A DNA stretch of 64,000 nt from an uncultured Actinomycetota bacterium (GTDB lineage Bacteria > Actinomycetota > Actinomycetes > JAHEKZ01), in the NCBI GenBank assembly GCA_963743915.1, contig CAVURN010000001.1:512001-576000 (forward strand), read 5' to 3'. Below, piece by piece: positions 1-5,770 of this stretch. The notes beneath the pieces were generated by a model. The model saw only the letters and a list, made by a program, of their open reading frames with translations. It did no database searches and had not been told where the DNA came from. The position numbers and the translations under genes were made by a program. The stretch's first letter is position 1. Each line of letters starts with the position of its first letter.

Positions 1-18
1 TCTGGAGATGCGTCATGA
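1..18 (+). CDS. 3' end of upstream gene, probably ECF sigma factor SigR/SigH (partial)
   Basis: Frame ...SGDAS* ends in an ATGA overlap with the rsrA start; identity inferred only from the usual sigR-rsrA gene order. Confidence 0.4.
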   Translation, partial: SGDAS

Positions 19-311
19 GCAATGGCGACGCCCACGAGCTCGACTGCTCCGACGTCGTGGAGGCGGTGTACCTCTACCTCGACGGGGAGCTGGCGACCGA
101 GGCGATCGAGGAGATCAAGCAGCATCTCGACGAGTGCTCGCCCTGCCTGCGCGAGTACGGCGTCGAGCAGGAGGTCAAGTCCCTCATCGCCAGGAGCTGC
201 TGCGAGTCGGCCCCGGAGCAGCTGCGGGTAGCGATCCAGCAGCGGCTCGAGGTCGTCCGGACGCAGATGTCGTACACCGAGGTCACCACCTACCGACCCC
301 TGACCGACTGA
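15..311 (+). CDS. rsrA: Zinc-binding anti-sigma factor RsrA/RshA (mycothiol system)
   Basis: ZAS motif C-x..HLDECSPC, YLDGE, SCCESAPEQLR; 98 aa. Confidence 0.92.
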   Translation: MSNGDAHELDCSDVVEAVYLYLDGELATEAIEEIKQHLDECSPCLREYGVEQEVKSLIARSCCESAPEQLRVAIQQRLEVVRTQMSYTEVTTYRPLTD

Positions 312-335: not shown

Positions 336-410
336 TCAGGCGGTGGGGCGGTTGCCGTGGTTCGCGCTCTTCTTCTTGCGGTCGCGGCGCTTGCGGGCGC
401 GCTTGCTCAT
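336..410 (-). CDS. 50S ribosomal protein bL37
   Basis: Not in ORF track; reads MSKRARKRRDRKKKSANHGNRPTA (24 aa) with AGGAG RBS; matches the actinobacterial bL37 pattern and its position next to rsrA. Confidence 0.9.
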   Translation of the reverse strand: MSKRARKRRDRKKKSANHGNRPTA

Positions 411-485: not shown

Positions 486-1181
486 TCAGGGACCCAGCCG
501 ACGGTTGACGGCGGCGAGCACGGCCCGCGCCACCGCATCGGTCTCGTCACCTCGCACCACCGCGCTGCCCGCCACTGACTGCGCACCGAGACGGGGCACC
601 GAAAGCGTGAGCACGACCAGCGCGACGGCGTGTGATCCGGTCTCGACGACGGCGGCACTCTCGACCGCTGCCGGGATACCGAGCAGCTCGTCGAGCGCAC
701 TCATCGTGGCGGACGCCACCAGGCGCGGGCGGGCGCTGGCGGCAGCGGCTCCGCGCTCGATCCCCACGAAGGTGTCACCGTCGAGGGTCAGGCGGACCTC
801 GACCTCGATCTCGGCGCCGGTGCTGCGCACGCCGATCTCGGTGATCTCGGGACGCGCCTGCGCCTCGATCTCCTCGAGCACCTGCACCGTCTCCTCGACG
901 TCCTCGTCACCGGCAGGAGAGGGCTCGAGGACGCTGGTCGCTCCCGGATCGTCCTCGATCTGCACGACGCTGACGATGCGGTGGTCCAGGTCGATGTCGA
1001 ACTGGGCCATCGCCAGCGACTGCACGTCGCGCACGACCTGCTTGGCGGGCTTTCCCGGCGCAGCCAGCACGTGGACCTCGGTGGGGTTCGCCTGGGCATC
1101 GGTGACGACGCTCACGGCGCGGACGCCGGGGATCTGCCGGATCGACTCTTCGAGGTCGGGAAGCAGGCGCAGGCTCGGCAT
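486..1181 (-). CDS. Uncharacterised two-domain protein (N-terminal 'EVHVLA..PAKQVVRDVQS' domain; C-terminal domain reminiscent of the LeuA allosteric domain)
   Basis: Start MPSLRLLPDLE after GAAGGA RBS; protein-like composition; ends DAVARAVLAAVNRRL. Confidence 0.75.
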   Translation of the reverse strand: MPSLRLLPDLEESIRQIPGVRAVSVVTDAQANPTEVHVLAAPGKPAKQVVRDVQSLAMAQFDIDLDHRIVSVVQIEDDPGATSVLEPSPAGDEDVEETVQVLEEIEAQARPEITEIGVRSTGAEIEVEVRLTLDGDTFVGIERGAAAASARPRLVASATMSALDELLGIPAAVESAAVVETGSHAVALVVLTLSVPRLGAQSVAGSAVVRGDETDAVARAVLAAVNRRLGP

Positions 1182-1254
1182 GAAGGTCAGTCCTTCTCGG
1201 GTCAAGGTCATCGTCGGGATCACCGTGGGGGGTCGGGTGTCGGTCATGGGCAGC

Positions 1255-1705
1255 TCAAGGAAGGGTCCCACGGCGGGGGCCGTCAGGAAGCGGGCGGAGT
1301 CCGGCGACGAGCAGCCGCCGCGAGTGCAGGTCGACGGGCGGGACGGGCTCGTCGGAGTCGTCAGAGTCGCCGGAGTCGTCGGAGTCGTCAGCAGCCGGGG
1401 CTGCGGTCGCGGCGCGCCCGTCGGCGGTCTCCTGGTCGGGCAGCTCCGCCACGCCCCCGGTGAGCTCCCCCTCGAGGGCCACGAGGGTCGCGGGCAGCAC
1501 CGCTCTGGCATGGTCCACCAGCCGGCGCACGGACTCTCGCTGCAGCCATCGGAGCCGTCGGGCCTGTTCGGGGGTCAGCGACCCCTCGGCGACCGCGGTG
1601 TCCAGCGCGCCGTCGAAGGTGGCGGAAGGGGTCGGGTCGGAGAGGTCGAGCAGGGCCGCGACAAGGTCGGCGTACGCCGCCAGGCCGTCCGGCTTCGGTG
1701 CTCAA
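1255..1705 (-). CDS. Hypothetical protein, apparent frameshift just after the TTG start
   Basis: GGGGAGGGGG RBS then TTG at 1705; shifted frame reads DGLAAYADLVAALLDLSD...LRWLQRESVRRLVDHARAVLP...; acidic DDS repeats. Confidence 0.55.
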
Positions 1706-1870
1706 CGTTCCCCCTCCCCGGTCGTCGGTGCCGATGGTCGGTGCGCCCCCGCTCGACACCCCCGCCCCCCTGCCTGCAGCAGGCTACGGCGTGCGGGAAA
1801 CTGCCCGGGGAGCACTCTCCGGACACATGCTCCGAACGTGTCCACAATGGTCAGGTAGTGCTACAGGTAC

Positions 1871-1886
1871 TAGCCCGTTCGGGCTA
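1871..1886. promoter_or_regulatory. 16-bp palindrome, BldM-box-like operator
   Basis: TAGCCCGTTCGGGCTA; core matches the Streptomyces BldM homodimer consensus TCACcCgnncGgGTGA. Confidence 0.35.
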
Positions 1887-1916
1887 ATCAAGGGCACAAT
1901 TCGGCCGCGAGTGACA

Positions 1917-2154
1917 GCCGTCCTTGACGGCCACACCCGTCACACCCTTCACTTCCGTAGCGGCGGTGCTCGGCCTGACGGACACCGCCGCAGACAACTG
2001 CAGAGGGCGGATCCGGGATCGGCAGCGGGTGAGGAGGCTCGGAGCGGGCGCGAGACGCCCTGCTCCCACAGCTTCAACGCGCACGAAATCCCGTTCACAG
2101 GGATCAACTTCGAAGCGGAGCGGATGCTGCGCGAGCCATTCAGCGGGGCTCGCG
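1917..2154 (+). ncRNA. Candidate structured 5' leader / cis-regulatory RNA
   Basis: Five stem-loops at 1917-1931, 1960-1991, 2041-2066, 2088-2104 and 2130-2154 in a non-coding stretch before the small ORF. Confidence 0.35.
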
Positions 2155-2184
2155 ACATCACGTGCGAGGGGTGATTCCCACAAC

Positions 2185-2250
2185 ATGAGCAAGGTTGTTT
2201 CCGCGGTAGAGCGTTTCCTGTCCAGCGGCGCTGGTTGGTCGTGGCACTAG
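2185..2250 (+). CDS. 21-aa small peptide MSKVVSAVERFLSSGAGWSWH
   Basis: ATG at 2185, GAGGGG upstream, TAG at 2248-2250; lies 56 bp upstream of the HD-GYP gene. Confidence 0.65.
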   Translation: MSKVVSAVERFLSSGAGWSWH

Positions 2251-2306
2251 AGACTCGTCGGCTGCCGGTCCCGGATCCTCCCTCACTTCCCCCAGGAGTC
2301 GCTGGT

Positions 2307-3746
2307 ATGCAGCAGCTGCGTCGCGCAGCGGTCGTGTACGTGGCCGTCGTCACGGCTGCCGCGGTCGCTGCGCTGGTTGCTGCCCTCATCGAGGTCACCG
2401 ACAATCCCGATCACCTCGGGGTCGTGGCGGTGCTCGCTCCCATCTTCGTGCTGTCGGTCTACCTCAAGTCGCGGATGACGCAGGAGGTCGACCTCTCGGC
2501 CAACGTGCCCATGCTGATCGCCGCCTACCTGATCGGCGGATGGTCGGTCGCCTGTCTGGTCGGCGTCTCGGCGATCGTGCTCGACCGCCACCGCGCCTGG
2601 TCGCGGCTGCTCTTCAACAATGCCCAGTGGGTGCTGATGGGACTGGCCGGCGGGCTGGTCTACCAGGCCATGGGCGGGAAGCTCATGCAGGACCTCACCC
2701 CCACCGGCTTCACGGAGGATCTGCTGCCGCCGATCATCGTGTCGATCGGGGCCGTCATCGCCGTCAACGCCGCGCTGATGCTCGGGATCCTGGCCTTCCA
2801 GGAGCACATCCGTCCGGCGACGATCCTGCGCAGCATGGTGCTGACCACCGTCGGTCCCTACTTCGCGTACGGACTCCTCGGGCTGCTCATGGCCGTGCTC
2901 TGGTCCATCGGGAGCGGCTTTGCTGCTGTGCTCGTCCTGATCCCACTTCTCGTGGCTCGTTGGGCGTTCGAGCAGTACGCCGAGCAGCGCGTGGCGTACG
3001 AGGCCACCATCCGGTCGCTGGTGCAGGCGGTCGAGACCAAGGACCACTACACCCGTGGCCACAGTGAACGCGTCTCCCGCGCCTCGGTGCTCATCGCGCG
3101 CGTTCTCAGCATGCGCGAAGACCGGGTGGAGGCGCTGCGGTACGCGGGCATCCTGCATGACGTCGGTAAGCTCGGCGTGCCCACGCGGGTGCTGCAGAAG
3201 AGTGGACCGCTCAGCGACCAGGAGTTCGCCGCGATCCAGCTGCACCCGGTGCGCGGCACGGAGATGGTGCGCGGCATCGCCTTCCTGGAGGAGGCGTACA
3301 CCGGCATCCTCCACCACCACGAGCGGCTCGACGGCCGGGGATACCCGAGTGGTTTGTCGGGCGCGGACATCCCCGAGTTCGCCCGGATCATCGCGGTGGC
3401 GGACGCCTTCGACTCGATGACGTCCACCCGCTCGTACCGCGGTGCGCGGGACGTGCCGTCAGCGCTCGAGGAGCTGGAACGCTGCATCGGCACCCAGTTC
3501 GACGAACCGATGGTGCGGGCCCTGATCACCGCACTCGAGCGTGAGCCGTGGACCACTGTTGCAGCCGCCGAGCAGCGTGAGCTGGACGTCGAGCTCGTCG
3601 CCGGCAGCTACGACCACGACGACCCCACGGTCGAGCAGCCCACCGGTCACGACGCCGACGTGGCGGCGGAGGCTGCCCGCGCCGAGGCCCTCGAGCAGAA
3701 GCTTCTCCACGGTCGTGACGTCCTGGACCGGGGGGGCTGGTCATGA
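2307..3746 (+). CDS. Membrane HD-GYP c-di-GMP phosphodiesterase (HdgA-like; multi-TM sensor N-terminus)
   Basis: AGGAG RBS then ATG 2307; ~7 hydrophobic helices, then ETKDHYTRGHSERV, LHDVGK, HPVRG, HHHERLDGRGYP, VADAFDSMTSTRSYR. Confidence 0.93.
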   Translation: MQQLRRAAVVYVAVVTAAAVAALVAALIEVTDNPDHLGVVAVLAPIFVLSVYLKSRMTQEVDLSANVPMLIAAYLIGGWSVACLVGVSAIVLDRHRAWSRLLFNNAQWVLMGLAGGLVYQAMGGKLMQDLTPTGFTEDLLPPIIVSIGAVIAVNAALMLGILAFQEHIRPATILRSMVLTTVGPYFAYGLLGLLMAVLWSIGSGFAAVLVLIPLLVARWAFEQYAEQRVAYEATIRSLVQAVETKDHYTRGHSERVSRASVLIARVLSMREDRVEALRYAGILHDVGKLGVPTRVLQKSGPLSDQEFAAIQLHPVRGTEMVRGIAFLEEAYTGILHHHERLDGRGYPSGLSGADIPEFARIIAVADAFDSMTSTRSYRGARDVPSALEELERCIGTQFDEPMVRALITALEREPWTTVAAAEQRELDVELVAGSYDHDDPTVEQPTGHDADVAAEAARAEALEQKLLHGRDVLDRGGWS

Positions 3747-5038
3747 GGTCCACATGGGCGCAGGAGTTCTCCGGCGGCTCGGTGCTCGTCGTCGTGGGCG
3801 GCCTGCTGCTGGCGGTGGCGGGGGTGGCCTCCGCGGCCACCGGGGACATCGTGGATCCCACGATCGCCGTCGGCTTCGGCGCACTGATCGCCCTGGGTGA
3901 GCTGGTGCGCGTCAACCTTCCGGGAGACCGCTCCGCAGCACCACTCGGGGCAGCGGCGGCCCTGGCCTACGCCCTGCTCGGATCCTTCCGACAGCTCAGC
4001 GGCACGGTAGAGCAGACGGAGTACGGCGTCCTCCAGGTCGTCGCCGTCTGCACCATCGCCGTCATCGTGGGTGCCGTTCCGCACATGGCGGTCGGGCATC
4101 CGCCACGGCTGGAGTCGTTGGCGCGCCGCGTGCTCGTGGCCGGCCTGGCCGCGCTGCTGTTCCGACCCCTCTACACCAACGGCAAGCTGGAAGGGATCAC
4201 TGACGGCGGCTGGCAGCTGCCCGCTCTCATGCTCGTCATCGTGCTGGTCTGCGGTGTGGCCGACGCGCTGCTCGCCGCGCTCGCGCGCGCCGGCCGCGAG
4301 AGCATGCCGTTCGGCGCGGCGGCGCGTGACGAGTTCCGCGCGCTGCTCGGGATCGGCTCGGCCATCGGCGCGACCGGTGTCCTCATCGCCCTGGCGGCAG
4401 GGGTGATGGGCTTCTGGGCGTTGCCGCTGTTCATGCTGCCGCTGCTGGCTGCCCAGTTCTCGTTCCGGCGGTACGCCAGCATCCGGGCGACCTACTTGCA
4501 GACCATCCGGGCGTTGTCGCGCGTGACCGAGGTCGGTGGGTACACCGAGAGCGGTCACGCGCAACGCGTGGCACGCCTGTCGGTCGCAGTCGGACGTGAG
4601 ATGGGCTTGTCGGAGGCAGACCTCGTCGATCTCGAGTACGCGGCTCTCATGCATGACATCGGGCAGCTCTCGCTCACCGACCCGATCCCCGGAGGTGCGA
4701 CCGTGATGGTCGCTCGCGACGAGCAGCGACGCATCGCCGAGCTCGGCGCCGAGGTGATCCGGCAGACCGGTGTCATGGATCGCGTCGCGCACATCGTGGA
4801 GCAGCAGGCCGAGCCGTTCCGGCGTCCTGGTCAACCCTTCGACGCAAGCGTCCCGGTCGCGAGCCGCATCATCCGCGTGGTGAACGCCTACGACGACCTG
4901 GTGGGTGGCTCCCTCGACACCGATCGACGGATCGCGGCGCTGGACCGGTTGCGGCTCGGAGTCGCCTACGAGTACGACCCGCACGTGGTCGATCTCGTCA
5001 GTCGCGCGGTCGAGCGCACCATGCTGGTCGACGCCTGA
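3743..5038 (+). CDS. Membrane protein with degenerate HD-GYP domain (HdgB-like)
   Basis: ATGA overlap; multi-TM N-terminus; GHAQRV and MHDIG retained, but HHE and GYP replaced (VEQQAEPFRRP). Confidence 0.88.
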   Translation: MRSTWAQEFSGGSVLVVVGGLLLAVAGVASAATGDIVDPTIAVGFGALIALGELVRVNLPGDRSAAPLGAAAALAYALLGSFRQLSGTVEQTEYGVLQVVAVCTIAVIVGAVPHMAVGHPPRLESLARRVLVAGLAALLFRPLYTNGKLEGITDGGWQLPALMLVIVLVCGVADALLAALARAGRESMPFGAAARDEFRALLGIGSAIGATGVLIALAAGVMGFWALPLFMLPLLAAQFSFRRYASIRATYLQTIRALSRVTEVGGYTESGHAQRVARLSVAVGREMGLSEADLVDLEYAALMHDIGQLSLTDPIPGGATVMVARDEQRRIAELGAEVIRQTGVMDRVAHIVEQQAEPFRRPGQPFDASVPVASRIIRVVNAYDDLVGGSLDTDRRIAALDRLRLGVAYEYDPHVVDLVSRAVERTMLVDA

Positions 5039-5053
5039 CCTGCCCACAGTCCT

Positions 5054-5770
5054 TTGACAGAGTTCCTGCTGCTCGCTGCGGCGACGGCAGCGGCCGGGAT
5101 GCTCAGCGCCGTCACCGGGTTCGGTGGCGCTGTCATCGTGACTCCCCTCTTCGTGGCGGTCCTGGGTGTCCGAGATGCCGTCGCAGTCCTGACCGTCGTC
5201 CAGCTCGCGAGCAACGTGAGCCGTGTCGCCTTCAACCGCCACGACGTGGACCGGTCGATCGTGCTCGCCTTCAGCGCTGGCGCCGTGCCCGCCGCGGTGG
5301 TCGGCTCGTTGCTCTTCGCCGTCGCCCCCGTGCCGGCCCTGGTGCGGGCCGTCGGCGTCTTCCTGCTGGTCGCCGTGGTGTGGCTGCGGCTGGCCCCGTC
5401 GATGCCTCGGCTCGGCGGTCCGGCGTTCGCGGGGCTCGGGGCCGCGTCCGGACTCGGTTCGGCGCTGGTGGGCAGCGTCGGCCCGTTCGTGGCCCCCTTC
5501 TTCCTCTCTCAGGGGTTGGTGCGCGGCGCGTACATCGGCACCGAGGCCGCGTCCGCTGTCGTCATGCACCTGGTCAAGCTGGTCGTCTACGGAGCCGTGG
5601 CCGTGCTGACGACGAGCGGTCTGCTGTACGGTCTGGCGCTCGCACCGGCGAGTGTGGCGGGATCGTGGATGGGACGTCGCGTGGTCGATCGCATGCCGGT
5701 CGCCGTCTTTCGCGCCGTGGTGGAGGTCGGCCTCGTGGTGGCGGGGCTGCTCCTGATCCTGCGCGGATGA
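5054..5770 (+). CDS. Sulfite exporter TauE/SafE family protein
   Basis: AGMLSAVTGFGGAVI, GSVGPFVAPFF; ~8 TM. Confidence 0.85.
   Translation: MTEFLLLAAATAAAGMLSAVTGFGGAVIVTPLFVAVLGVRDAVAVLTVVQLASNVSRVAFNRHDVDRSIVLAFSAGAVPAAVVGSLLFAVAPVPALVRAVGVFLLVAVVWLRLAPSMPRLGGPAFAGLGAASGLGSALVGSVGPFVAPFFLSQGLVRGAYIGTEAASAVVMHLVKLVVYGAVAVLTTSGLLYGLALAPASVAGSWMGRRVVDRMPVAVFRAVVEVGLVVAGLLLILRG

Follow-up and report, generated by a model that had tools for sequence, protein, structure and literature searches.

In Streptomyces venezuelae, the genes hdgA and hdgB (vnz24090/vnz24095) are placed near rsrA, probably in one operon, and code for an intact membrane HD-GYP protein followed by a membrane paralogue devoid of the GYP motif, both of which were described as poorly expressed (PMC6205966, PMC13232838). 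The membrane domain of HdgA was later named MASE9 in a preprint (Galperin and Chou), the available text of which proposes that this domain binds a ligand inside the membrane. In the accessible portions of these works, MASE9-containing HD-GYP proteins of the HdgA/HdgB type are attributed to many Actinomycetes, with no signal reported for them and no phenotype in the single model studied; likewise, neither an upstream open reading frame (ORF) nor a leader RNA is described there for the S. venezuelae pair. The same gene pair, also near rsrA, was analysed here in a 64,000-nt stretch of contig CAVURN010000001.1 from an uncultured Actinomycetota bacterium (hereafter, the window), in which it is preceded by a short ORF (sORF) lying inside a structured leader RNA. 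This mini-gene in a folded leader before an HD-GYP pair points to an undescribed control layer for signalling by cyclic di-GMP (c-di-GMP).

A Peptide-Constrained ORF Upstream of hdgA

The sORF (positions 2185-2250 of the window, plus strand) consists of 21 codons and a TAG stop, and is separated by 56 nt from the ATG of the hdgA-like gene at 2307. It is preceded by an extended Shine-Dalgarno (SD)-like run (2168-2175, plus strand), which ends 9 nt before the ATG, is presumably complementary to the 3′ end of 16S rRNA, and was kept in one of two near-identical forms across all the sORF-upstream stretches compared. The original prediction, made from the letters of the window alone, had named this sORF, its SD-like site, the 56-nt gap and the translationally coupled HD-GYP pair downstream, and had located all of them correctly.

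The conservation of the sORF was surveyed among loci that, in all 158 cases examined, belonged to Actinomycetes. A protein search of 41 related genomes retrieved 28 loci with a full-length HdgA relative, each of which presented a short upstream ORF ending in Trp plus 0-3 residues (26 tabulated; L022 and L026 read separately). Another 80 named loci were taken from a species-representative genome collection, adding the genera Nonomuraea, Actinomadura, Spirillospora, Nocardiopsis, Thermomonospora and Streptosporangium, together with metagenome-assembled genomes (MAGs) labelled Acidothermaceae, Sporichthyaceae and Nanopelagicales. The census proper comprised 98 distinct hdgA-like loci, each preceded by 330 nt or more of available sequence, and counted ORFs of at least 10 codons ending in G-x-[SGA]-W-x(0-1) or W-x-W-x(0-1). 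On the sense strand upstream of the hdgA-like gene, such an sORF was found at 85 of the 98 loci, against 0/98 on the reverse strand and 0/98 in mononucleotide shuffles. Six of the 13 misses showed near-variant endings, in two others three further residues separated the motif from the stop, in one it lay deep in a longer frame, and at the remaining four no motif-ending ORF was seen. Over the loci compared, the sORF was placed on the same strand as hdgA and at a distance of 16-160 nt from it.

Nucleotide variation within the sORF followed the pattern of a coding sequence. Among 20 distinct 21-codon sequences, the variable sites at the three codon positions were 11, 10 and 18 of 20, and the synonymous share of pairwise codon differences was 0.50 in frame and only 0.17 and 0.08 out of frame. 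The same share reached 0.74 (against 0.13 and 0.04) within the sORFs of L001-L014, and 0.42 (against 0.14 and 0.09) in the last 9 codons of 40 distinct sORFs of Streptosporangiales type, and all length differences between sORFs corresponded to whole codons. The expectation that a small ORF would be conserved upstream of orthologous HD-GYP genes and would evolve as coding sequence was thus borne out. One could still suppose that this frame is open by chance in a conserved non-coding region and is never translated, given that the conservation of this region extends to its RNA and that translation is deduced from sequence. However, a synonymous share three- to tenfold higher in frame than out of frame, indels that never break a codon, the retention of the ORF in lineages whose leaders are unrelated in sequence, and the two empty census controls leave such an explanation with only a negligible likelihood. 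The sORF is a genuine, peptide-constrained upstream ORF, predicted to be translated, and would represent the first cistron of an sORF-hdgA-hdgB unit widespread in Actinomycetes. No NCBIfam model matched its peptide, though this library recognises the 24-aa ribosomal protein bL37.

The 37 distinct peptides of the window clade conformed to the pattern M-x-K-[IVL]-x-x-A-[VL]-E-x-[FML]-L-x-x-G-x-G-W-x-W-(x), in which the first Met and the last Trp were invariant and K3 and E9 were present in at least 90%. The window peptide has the features of a 21-aa amphipathic helix, with a basic N-terminus, a Gly-rich turn, a W-x-W ending and the residues Glu9-Arg10 in mid-helix, and it is too polar to span the membrane as a classical transmembrane segment. 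Four lineages of the clade carry a 4-residue insertion in the helical part, equivalent to one helical turn. Across orders, the shared part is restricted to the last 4-6 residues, G-hydrophobic-[SGA]-W-x(-W-x), plus the stop, and includes nothing else. Most Nonomuraea code for 30-40-residue transmembrane-like peptides ending in P-P-G-V-S-W-T, and at most Nonomuraea loci the sORF stop is placed 16-21 nt before the hdgA start; in the other Nonomuraea and in Streptosporangium, peptides that are charged or 16-28 residues long finish in the same way. Besides most Nonomuraea, two lineages of the window clade also have transmembrane-like versions. The sORFs of Actinomadura/Spirillospora keep a Met 8 codons ahead of the stop, and at one locus the 8-codon ORF starting there is the only one, while an identical 13-residue peptide was found in five small genomes with the window-type leader. 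In several families (L022/L036, L145 and L147-L149), a second mini-ORF of 9-10, and up to ~30, codons follows the first sORF and ends in a W-K-W or W-N-W type motif beside its stop.

A separate observation concerns codon choice. The Ser codon of the G-V-S-W end was TCC in 39 of 40 distinct sORFs of Streptosporangiales type (L042-L110), with the adjoining Gly and Val codons varying freely, which suggests an extra nucleotide-level or tRNA-specific constraint at this point.

A Structured Leader RNA Encloses the sORF

In the lineage of the window, the sORF is built into a structured leader of ~330 nt, and the upstream regions of the clade share blocks conserved in all three frames. Both the covarying RNA structure around the sORF and the evidence from RNA libraries described below had been missed by the original prediction. 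The leader is bracketed by a long-range helix, P1, whose 5′ arm (2003-2033) pairs with a 3′ arm (2254-2284) beginning a few nucleotides past the sORF stop. The 5′ arm is followed by a hairpin region that differs in length and sequence between lineages in the alignments (2034-2113), by a single-stranded core of 12 nt (2114-2125), which is built from a 5-nt unit in two tandem copies and is invariant at 11 of its 12 positions, and by P3 (2130-2154), a 7-bp hairpin (2130-2136 with 2148-2154) whose loop holds a third copy of that unit, all of them on the plus strand.

RNAalifold, applied to 19 leader sequences, predicted both P1 and P3. In the minimum free energy (MFE) fold of the window, P1 comprises 29 bp with three single-nt interruptions and a perfect segment of 18 bp, whose G-U pairs indicate a feature of RNA rather than of DNA, and its length is that of a processing stem, for which about two helical turns or more are expected; in other loci, judged by eye from per-locus duplexes, the arms pair over ~20-30 bp. 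For P1 and P3 together (28 pairs), 97.4% of 532 alignment cells were paired and 20 of the 28 pairs showed compensatory changes. P1 contributed 21 counted pairs, with 97.0% of the cells paired, 14 pairs with compensatory changes and 7 that never varied, and P3 showed 98.5% of paired cells in the 19-leader alignment and compensatory changes in 6 of its 7 pairs among 28 sequences. None of 500 shuffles reached the observed pairing, and when the 3′ partner was slid by 1-3 columns, the paired share fell to 31-46%. At the level of single loci, the conserved arms paired in 35 of 36 distinct loci, the optimum at L020 being another pairing. The energy of the per-locus duplexes was tried as a statistic and discarded, since L008, L020 and L058 could not be cleanly separated from 20 shuffles, and the support for P1 is therefore drawn from the alignment-based pair count. 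The position of the helix relative to the reading frame was also tightly kept, as the motif of the 3′ arm was found 5-14 nt past the sORF stop in 23 of 26 loci and at 17, 28 and 29 nt in the others.

The leader matched no described RNA family: Rfam 15 gave no match at E≤1 in positions 1600-2400, none at the gathering score across the 64-kb window, and six related loci likewise yielded none at E≤0.1. Upstream of P1, the hexamers TTGACG (1924-1929) and TTCACT (1948-1953), separated by an 18-nt spacer on the plus strand and conserved in the upstream alignment, form a promoter-like pair, regarded as a putative promoter; a consensus scan returned no sigma-70-type site at 1924-1953. A BldD box or a SigR-type promoter at 1924-1960 was considered and set aside, as the region is not palindromic and mismatches the consensus sequences. 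No terminator-like site was found in the leader by a site scan. Two other candidates were rejected, namely a hairpin sequestering the SD sequence upstream of the sORF, for which local MFEs equalled those of shuffles, with 75% or more of the SD core paired in just 16 of 28 sequences, and a second small ORF starting in the core motif in the window clade, which was unconserved and lacked its ATG in other clades.

The Leader Core Was Found Only in Genomes Carrying hdgA

The distribution of the leader was determined in 151 genomes of the class, including the unpublished genome G050, by means of an 82-position covariance model that runs from the core to the sORF start and is anchored on the 12-nt core; hdgA relatives were accepted at E≤1e-60. 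The core was detected in 54 of the 151 genomes, representing 34 of 102 genera, and an hdgA relative in 74, with one per genome. All of the 54 core-positive genomes were among these 74, and none of the 77 genomes without hdgA had a core. Core and hdgA shared a contig, with the core 100-350 nt ahead of the gene (coordinates read by eye); in two fragmented assemblies, this contig held just the N-terminal part of hdgA. There were 55 core matches in the 54 genomes, the sole second match being located at a contig end of a fragmented assembly. A second copy of the leader, accompanied by the divergent genes geneA and geneB discussed below, was noticed at a contig end of a same-genus assembly (L113, G007:C33:1-1690); its peptide has the last Trp replaced, and this copy could reflect strain heterogeneity in the MAG or a decaying duplicate.

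The sORF itself reaches further than the core. Twelve of the 20 genomes with hdgA and no core keep the sORF (six Streptosporangiales-like and 2, 1 and 3 from three further families), and so does the unpublished genome G033 (locus L022), whose sORF variant is also present in the public record L036. In one core-negative family, the sORF is still flanked by a P1-like inverted repeat of ~30 nt. Five of the 20 hold no sORF (four Streptomyces-like and one other), and the last two end at contig edges. The Streptomyces-like family (a probable label; genomes of 7.5-9.2 Mb) keeps hdgAB without the sORF in four of four genomes, and in G047, the only one of them with a full flank, rsrA directly adjoins hdgA. 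As judged from these genome comparisons, the sORF/leader element belongs to Actinomycetes other than the Streptomyces-like genomes.

The Leader Is Present in Environmental RNA Libraries

Sixteen RNA runs from at least six studies of sediment, freshwater sediment, river and soil contained a fraction of 0.36-0.46 of the sampled words of positions 1900-2400. Contigs of four runs from four studies were mapped against 1500-3100. Two of these runs (X3 and X5), from two studies, yielded contigs of 242 nt spanning 2026-2267 with 0 differences to the window, a third study (X14) yielded a contig at 2033-2268, and X8 yielded contigs at 1968-2128 and 2099-2252. Positions 1500-1967 and 2269-3100 were uncovered in all four runs, with the exception of a 172-nt piece at 2453-2624 in X3, and this uneven cover argues against DNA carry-over. 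Shorter contigs carrying differences corresponded to the leaders of relatives.

These results indicate that the leader, including the sORF, is transcribed. They also give a weak hint that it probably accumulates as a discrete species of ~240 nt (approximately 2026-2268, plus strand), a candidate RNA made up of the sORF and its 5′ untranslated region (UTR); the contig ends of X3, X5 and X14 fall inside both P1 arms, and contigs cannot define RNA ends. The X8 contig that begins at 1968, just downstream of the promoter-like pair, crosses the 5′ arm of P1. Cleavage with the geometry of RNase III was considered, but the contig ends imply a 3′ overhang of 6 nt (X3 and X5) or 14 nt (X14), not of 2 nt, so that processing by RNase III is only a guess.

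A Cis-Acting Leader Peptide as the Favoured Mechanism

The features observed at the locus, that is, conservation, coding-type evolution, P1 and P3, the exclusive link to hdgA and the presence of the leader in RNA libraries, may be united by a cis-acting leader peptide coupled to the formation and processing of P1, a mechanism to which we assign a probability of roughly 45%. Its inferred parts are stalling, the processing by a double-strand-specific nuclease, any signal that might be sensed and the direction in which expression is changed. According to this proposal, the sORF would work mainly in cis, and its functional part would be the C-terminal end, G-hydrophobic-S/G/A-W-x(-W-x), placed directly before the stop. 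A ribosome reaching, and perhaps dwelling at, the sORF stop would sit 5-14 nt from the 3′ arm of P1, so that ribosome occupancy is proposed to decide whether P1 closes. Closed P1 would constitute a double-stranded processing site, and a cut at this site would free a stable and abundant sORF RNA of ~240 nt from the hdgAB message, keeping HdgA and HdgB low, while an occupied sORF stop would leave the transcript intact. In Streptosporangiales, which are devoid of P1, the same peptide end lies 16-21 nt before the hdgA start, and termination at the sORF could act on the ribosome-binding site of hdgA.

Several observations fit this mechanism. As is typical of leader peptides, the sORF is short, lies on the same strand near the gene that it would regulate, and shows amino-acid selection that is strongest near the C-terminus and stop. 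What all lineages with the sORF share is limited to the stop and the residues proximal to the peptidyl transferase centre, some of the peptides are very short, and some families hold duplicated mini-ORFs of like ending, all of which is compatible with a peptide acting in cis. The tight distance between the stop and the P1 arm, or in Nonomuraea between the stop and the hdgA start, would likewise be suited to an effect in cis. An RNA contig running through the 5′ arm and others ending in both arms are as would be expected of a precursor and its product. The poor expression of hdgA and hdgB that the available accounts give for S. venezuelae fits tight control just loosely, because the Streptomyces-like genomes are without the sORF.

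On the other hand, a number of points weigh against this mechanism. The register between Trp and stop varies by clade, W-x-W-stop in some and W-x-W-x-stop in others, which is unusual for a termination-arrest peptide, and the identity of the stop codon also varies (TAG, TAA, TGA). The conservation of the whole 21-aa peptide in the helix-type clade and the one-turn insertions would suit a free helix better than a tunnel-bound chain. Moreover, neither SD site is sequestered by significant structure, the local MFEs being those of shuffles; the 6-nt 3′ overhang at the contig ends differs from the 2-nt stagger of RNase III; a strong SD sequence and an abundant sORF RNA would equally fit a peptide made for its own sake; and a complex prediction, with an ipSAE of 0.57, weakly favours binding between the peptide and HdgA. 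The readings in which the sORF product acts in trans, or in which the RNA itself is central, are not mutually exclusive with a leader peptide in cis, and they are considered below together with the proteins on which they depend.

The HdgA/HdgB Pair and the Peptide as Its Possible Partner

The hdgA-like gene (2307-3746, plus strand) codes for a protein of 479 aa with a multi-transmembrane N-terminal domain and an intact HD-GYP domain, recognised by the Pfam model HD_5 (PF13487) with 130.1 bits (E 8.9e-38; cut-off 27.2). In its translation, the HD and HHHERLDGRGYP motifs are both intact, with the HD dyad, the HHExxDGxGYP block and the downstream metal-binding Asp all present, and the residues H284, D285, H336-H338, E339, D342, G343, G345, Y346, P347 and D366 are invariant in 13 HdgA orthologues. 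Its product is a predicted HD-GYP c-di-GMP phosphodiesterase of the HdgA type. The hdgB-like gene (3743-5038, plus strand) overlaps it by 4 nt (ATGA) and codes for 431 aa with a multi-transmembrane N-terminal domain and a degenerate HD-GYP domain, which scores 53.1 bits against HD_5; in the pairwise alignment with the HdgA-like protein, HD is retained and the HHHERLDGRGYP block (HHxxxDGxGYP; His cluster and GYP) is substituted. A Kyte-Doolittle scan placed 5-6 hydrophobic segments within the first ~230 residues of both proteins, those of the HdgA-like protein being all within residues 1-223, and this N-terminal domain is a putative MASE9 domain by orthology to S. venezuelae HdgA. A relative of hdgB was found at 110 of 110 related loci. 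The active/dead pair proposed in the original prediction therefore corresponds, on domain scores, motif content and neighbourhood, to the hdgA/hdgB pair beside rsrA that has already been named in Streptomyces.

Given such a membrane partner, the sORF product might act in trans, as a micropeptide whose helix lies at the membrane interface, is anchored by its C-terminal Trp, and binds the MASE9 domain of HdgA and/or HdgB to modulate the phosphodiesterase, in which case the leader and P1 would just set the stoichiometry, with much peptide and little enzyme. This possibility, somewhat unlikely yet a serious rival of the cis mechanism, is favoured by the build of the peptide, with its basic N-terminus, amphipathic or hydrophobic helix, Gly-rich turn and W-x-W end, by the insertions of one helical turn, by the transmembrane-like versions in some lineages, and by the conservation of the whole peptide in the window clade. 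The strong conserved SD sequence and the presence of sORF RNA in libraries that are without the hdgA body would suit an abundant product, and the available text of the Galperin and Chou preprint, in which MASE9 is proposed to bind a ligand in the membrane, is also in line with it.

A direct interaction was also weakly suggested by complex prediction. The modelled pair of HdgA residues 1-235 and the peptide gave a median interaction prediction score from aligned errors (ipSAE) of 0.57 (0.44, 0.61 and 0.57), with 0.00 for the best of three controls, a pass that amounts to weak support for a peptide outside the calibration range. The partner pLDDT (predicted local distance difference test) was 70-75, and the runs agreed in at least 98% of the contacts. 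In the calibration, which included no chain shorter than 30 residues, 116 of 157 solved complexes passed the mark, as did 2 of 215 mismatches. The passes at scores of 0.60 or less comprised just 18 of these 157 complexes and both mismatches.

Nevertheless, peptides as short as 8-13 residues, and others whose N-terminal part is charged instead of hydrophobic, are found even inside one genus, which means that no membrane helix is universally kept. Loss of the conserved Glu of the peptide is not accompanied by a matching change in the conserved charge of the HdgA membrane domain, although this comparison involves two related lineages and has no power. In addition, hdgAB is present and the sORF absent in all four Streptomyces-like genomes. 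An intramembrane salt bridge between the peptide Glu and a conserved charged residue of HdgA found no support, as only N104, N154 and R218 are conserved polar residues in 51 distinct N-terminal domains and none of them changes in the two lineages that lost the Glu. The earlier suggestion that the peptide is a ligand or subunit of the sensor domain thus retains one weak in silico pass, but, of the whole peptide, just the final 4-6 residues are kept everywhere along with the stop, and conservation confined to the C-terminus suits a cis-acting leader peptide at least as well as a ligand or subunit.

The Divergent Genes geneA and geneB and the Leader RNA

The plus-strand sORF, hdgA and hdgB are separated by a 480-nt spacer from a divergent unit of two genes. 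The second of these, geneB (486-1181, minus strand), codes for a two-domain protein of 231 aa that bears the PAKQVVRD motif and begins with MP[ST]LRLLP, a start conserved in its orthologues; it matched no Pfam family at E≤0.01 and no NCBIfam family. Its AlphaFold2 (AF2) model, built on a 17-sequence alignment, reached a pLDDT of 86 and presented an N-terminal a-b-b-a-b arrangement and a C-terminal part of two b-b-b-a units. The best Foldseek matches were to the regulatory domain of LeuA/citramalate synthase, which binds leucine or isoleucine (3hpz_A, E 1.7e-5; the isolated domain 3f6h_B, template modelling (TM) score 0.61), followed by weaker matches to double-stranded RNA-binding domains (dsRBDs), with TM-scores near 0.2. 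In the model, the C-terminal fold has the layout of a LeuA_dimer-type regulatory domain, while its sequence did not place it in that family. A profile search against PDB sequences returned a PdxS chain (E 2.9e-4) and TFIIE (0.31), which were judged meaningless, and no LeuA match.

Strong geneB orthologues (about E≤1e-45) were found in 53 of the 54 core-positive genomes, the single miss being 60% complete, and in none of the 97 core-negative genomes; the latter include families that keep a similar sORF, one of them also with the P1-like inverted repeat. The original prediction had taken PKQxVRD proteins and short peptides ending in GAxxxW for recurrent neighbours of membrane HD-GYP genes in other phyla; among the loci examined, all from Actinomycetes, the PAKQVVRD protein did turn out to be a conserved divergent neighbour, but one confined to the subset with this leader type. 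Weaker geneB matches are paralogues of the C-terminal domain, one of which is found elsewhere in this genome, outside the window (E 8e-23), and the sole hint of occurrence outside Actinomycetes comes from look-alike clusters of geneB in the ESM-Atlas that are labelled Gemmatimonadota and stand without genomic context.

Upstream of geneB in the same unit lies the uncharacterised geneA (about 1255-1705, minus strand; stop-to-stop frame 1255-1701), which is apparently frameshifted near 1683. The N-terminus of its orthologues can be read from a TTG at 1705-1703 in another frame, and after ~7 codons the conserved sequence switches frame, in keeping with one extra base near 1683, which could be an assembly error of the MAG or a real lesion. 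Relatives of geneA were found at 36 of 110 loci, all with a helix-type leader, and geneA and geneB are placed beside hdgA in helix-type loci only. As a lead, geneA/geneB and the RNA core would belong together, bearing in mind that related genomes are not independent and that the co-distribution may be that of one clade.

This association bears on the idea that the RNA is the main actor, either as a riboswitch-like leader that binds a ligand or a protein, or as a stable small RNA with a dual function that is cut out of the P1 stem. The binding site would be the 12-nt core and the P3 loop, possibly for the products of geneB and geneA, and the sORF would be an expression platform or a secondary cargo. 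An invariant single-stranded core adjoining covarying helices is what such an RNA might look like; the element is single-copy, was always 100-350 nt upstream of hdgA and never in the genomes without it, belongs to no Rfam 15 family, and is nearly the only part of the region covered by RNA contigs. The near-perfect co-occurrence with geneB, whose C-terminal domain resembles a small-molecule-binding regulatory domain and has weak dsRBD-like matches, would add a protein to read it. Against this, the sORF is still present in lineages that lack the core and P1, and the clear peptide-level selection on it means that RNA alone does not explain the element; the co-distribution with geneB is open to the single-clade explanation given above, and TM-scores near 0.2 say little for the dsRBD matches. 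An RNA-centred function is, on these grounds, quite improbable.

Elements of these readings may be combined, such that an abundant micropeptide of 8-40 residues would dock into the MASE9 domain of HdgA/HdgB via its Trp end and switch the phosphodiesterase, while its supply would be set by a processed leader that is read by the LeuA-regulatory-like geneB product. Such a combination is regarded as unlikely; if true, it would constitute a three-part control module of peptide, RNA and protein for a second-messenger enzyme.

Other Genes of the Locus

The neighbourhood of the unit agrees with that of the Streptomyces pair. The gene rsrA, for the anti-sigma-R factor (15-311, plus strand), was recognised by NCBIfam TIGR03988 with 100.5 bits (cut-off 62.5) and was present in the flank of 71 of 110 related loci, so it serves, on gene content, as a context marker for the conserved sigR-rsrA/hdgAB neighbourhood. 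Between rsrA and geneB, a highly basic ORF of 24 codons (336-410, minus strand) codes for ribosomal protein bL37 (NCBIfam NF047428, 46.2 bits; cut-off 30) and is of a type that gene callers readily overlook. Downstream of hdgB, a gene of the TauE/SafE-type sulfite-exporter family (5054-5770, plus strand; Pfam PF01925, E 4e-27) occupies this place at just 5 of 110 loci, including that of the window, and is thus probably outside the unit. A third protein with an HD-GYP domain, unrelated to the pair, is encoded in the genome outside the window (E 5e-19); the geneB paralogue mentioned above and this protein are placed at G000:C1:444266-444664 and G000:C1:425205-425771.

Comparison with Known Systems

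A literature search retrieved no publication linking HD-GYP proteins with an upstream ORF, a leader peptide or a small protein, with the limit that the supplements of the hdgA papers could hold transcript maps; MASE9 was found in one relevant text, and the two conserved 12-nt leader motifs in unrelated texts only. The conserved partner ORF and its leader RNA would provide the first concrete handle on when and how HdgA and HdgB are made or activated. The leader is, in its own right, a well-supported structured motif absent from Rfam and present in environmental metatranscriptomes of several habitats. Whether a nascent-peptide sensor or a micropeptide ligand, either would, if true, add a novel kind of input to the turnover of c-di-GMP.

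TnaC and SpeFL are ligand-sensing arrest peptides that act at the stop codon. The sORF resembles them in being a short ORF in a leader, in its selection at the peptide level, in the conservation beside the stop and in its conserved Trp. It differs from them in that the Trp register shifts by one residue among clades, the ORF is enclosed by a 29-bp helix, and stalling is inferred; moreover, no Rho site or terminator logic of the TnaC/SpeFL type was found in the leader. The mgtA leader is an Mg2+-responsive structured leader containing mgtL, and shares with the present one a short ORF inside a long, conserved and structured 5′ leader, in which translation and folding can interact. The two are unrelated by sequence or in Rfam and, unlike in mgtL, it is the peptide itself, not only certain codons, that is conserved here, and a long duplex brackets the ORF.

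KdpF, MgrB and AcrZ are small membrane proteins that partner sensors or pumps. They recall the sORF product as tiny proteins encoded beside the gene of a membrane protein, with a basic N-terminus, a hydrophobic or amphipathic helix and an interfacial Trp. The window peptide departs from them by its Glu-Arg in mid-helix, and many of the homologous sORFs code for peptides too short or too charged to span a membrane. Finally, the stems of rRNA precursors and the actinobacterial pnp leader are long helices cut by double-strand-specific RNases. P1 is similar to them as a helix of 20-30 bp whose arms, ~230 nt apart, bracket a probably stable RNA and contain the contig ends, whereas these ends are without the 2-nt overhang of RNase III and cleavage of P1 is putative.

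Leader peptides, structured leaders and small membrane-protein partners are thus known kinds of regulatory element. What is new at this locus is the sORF/leader family itself, its strict link to a c-di-GMP phosphodiesterase pair, and a duplex of two to three helical turns that encloses a peptide-conserved ORF predicted to be translated.

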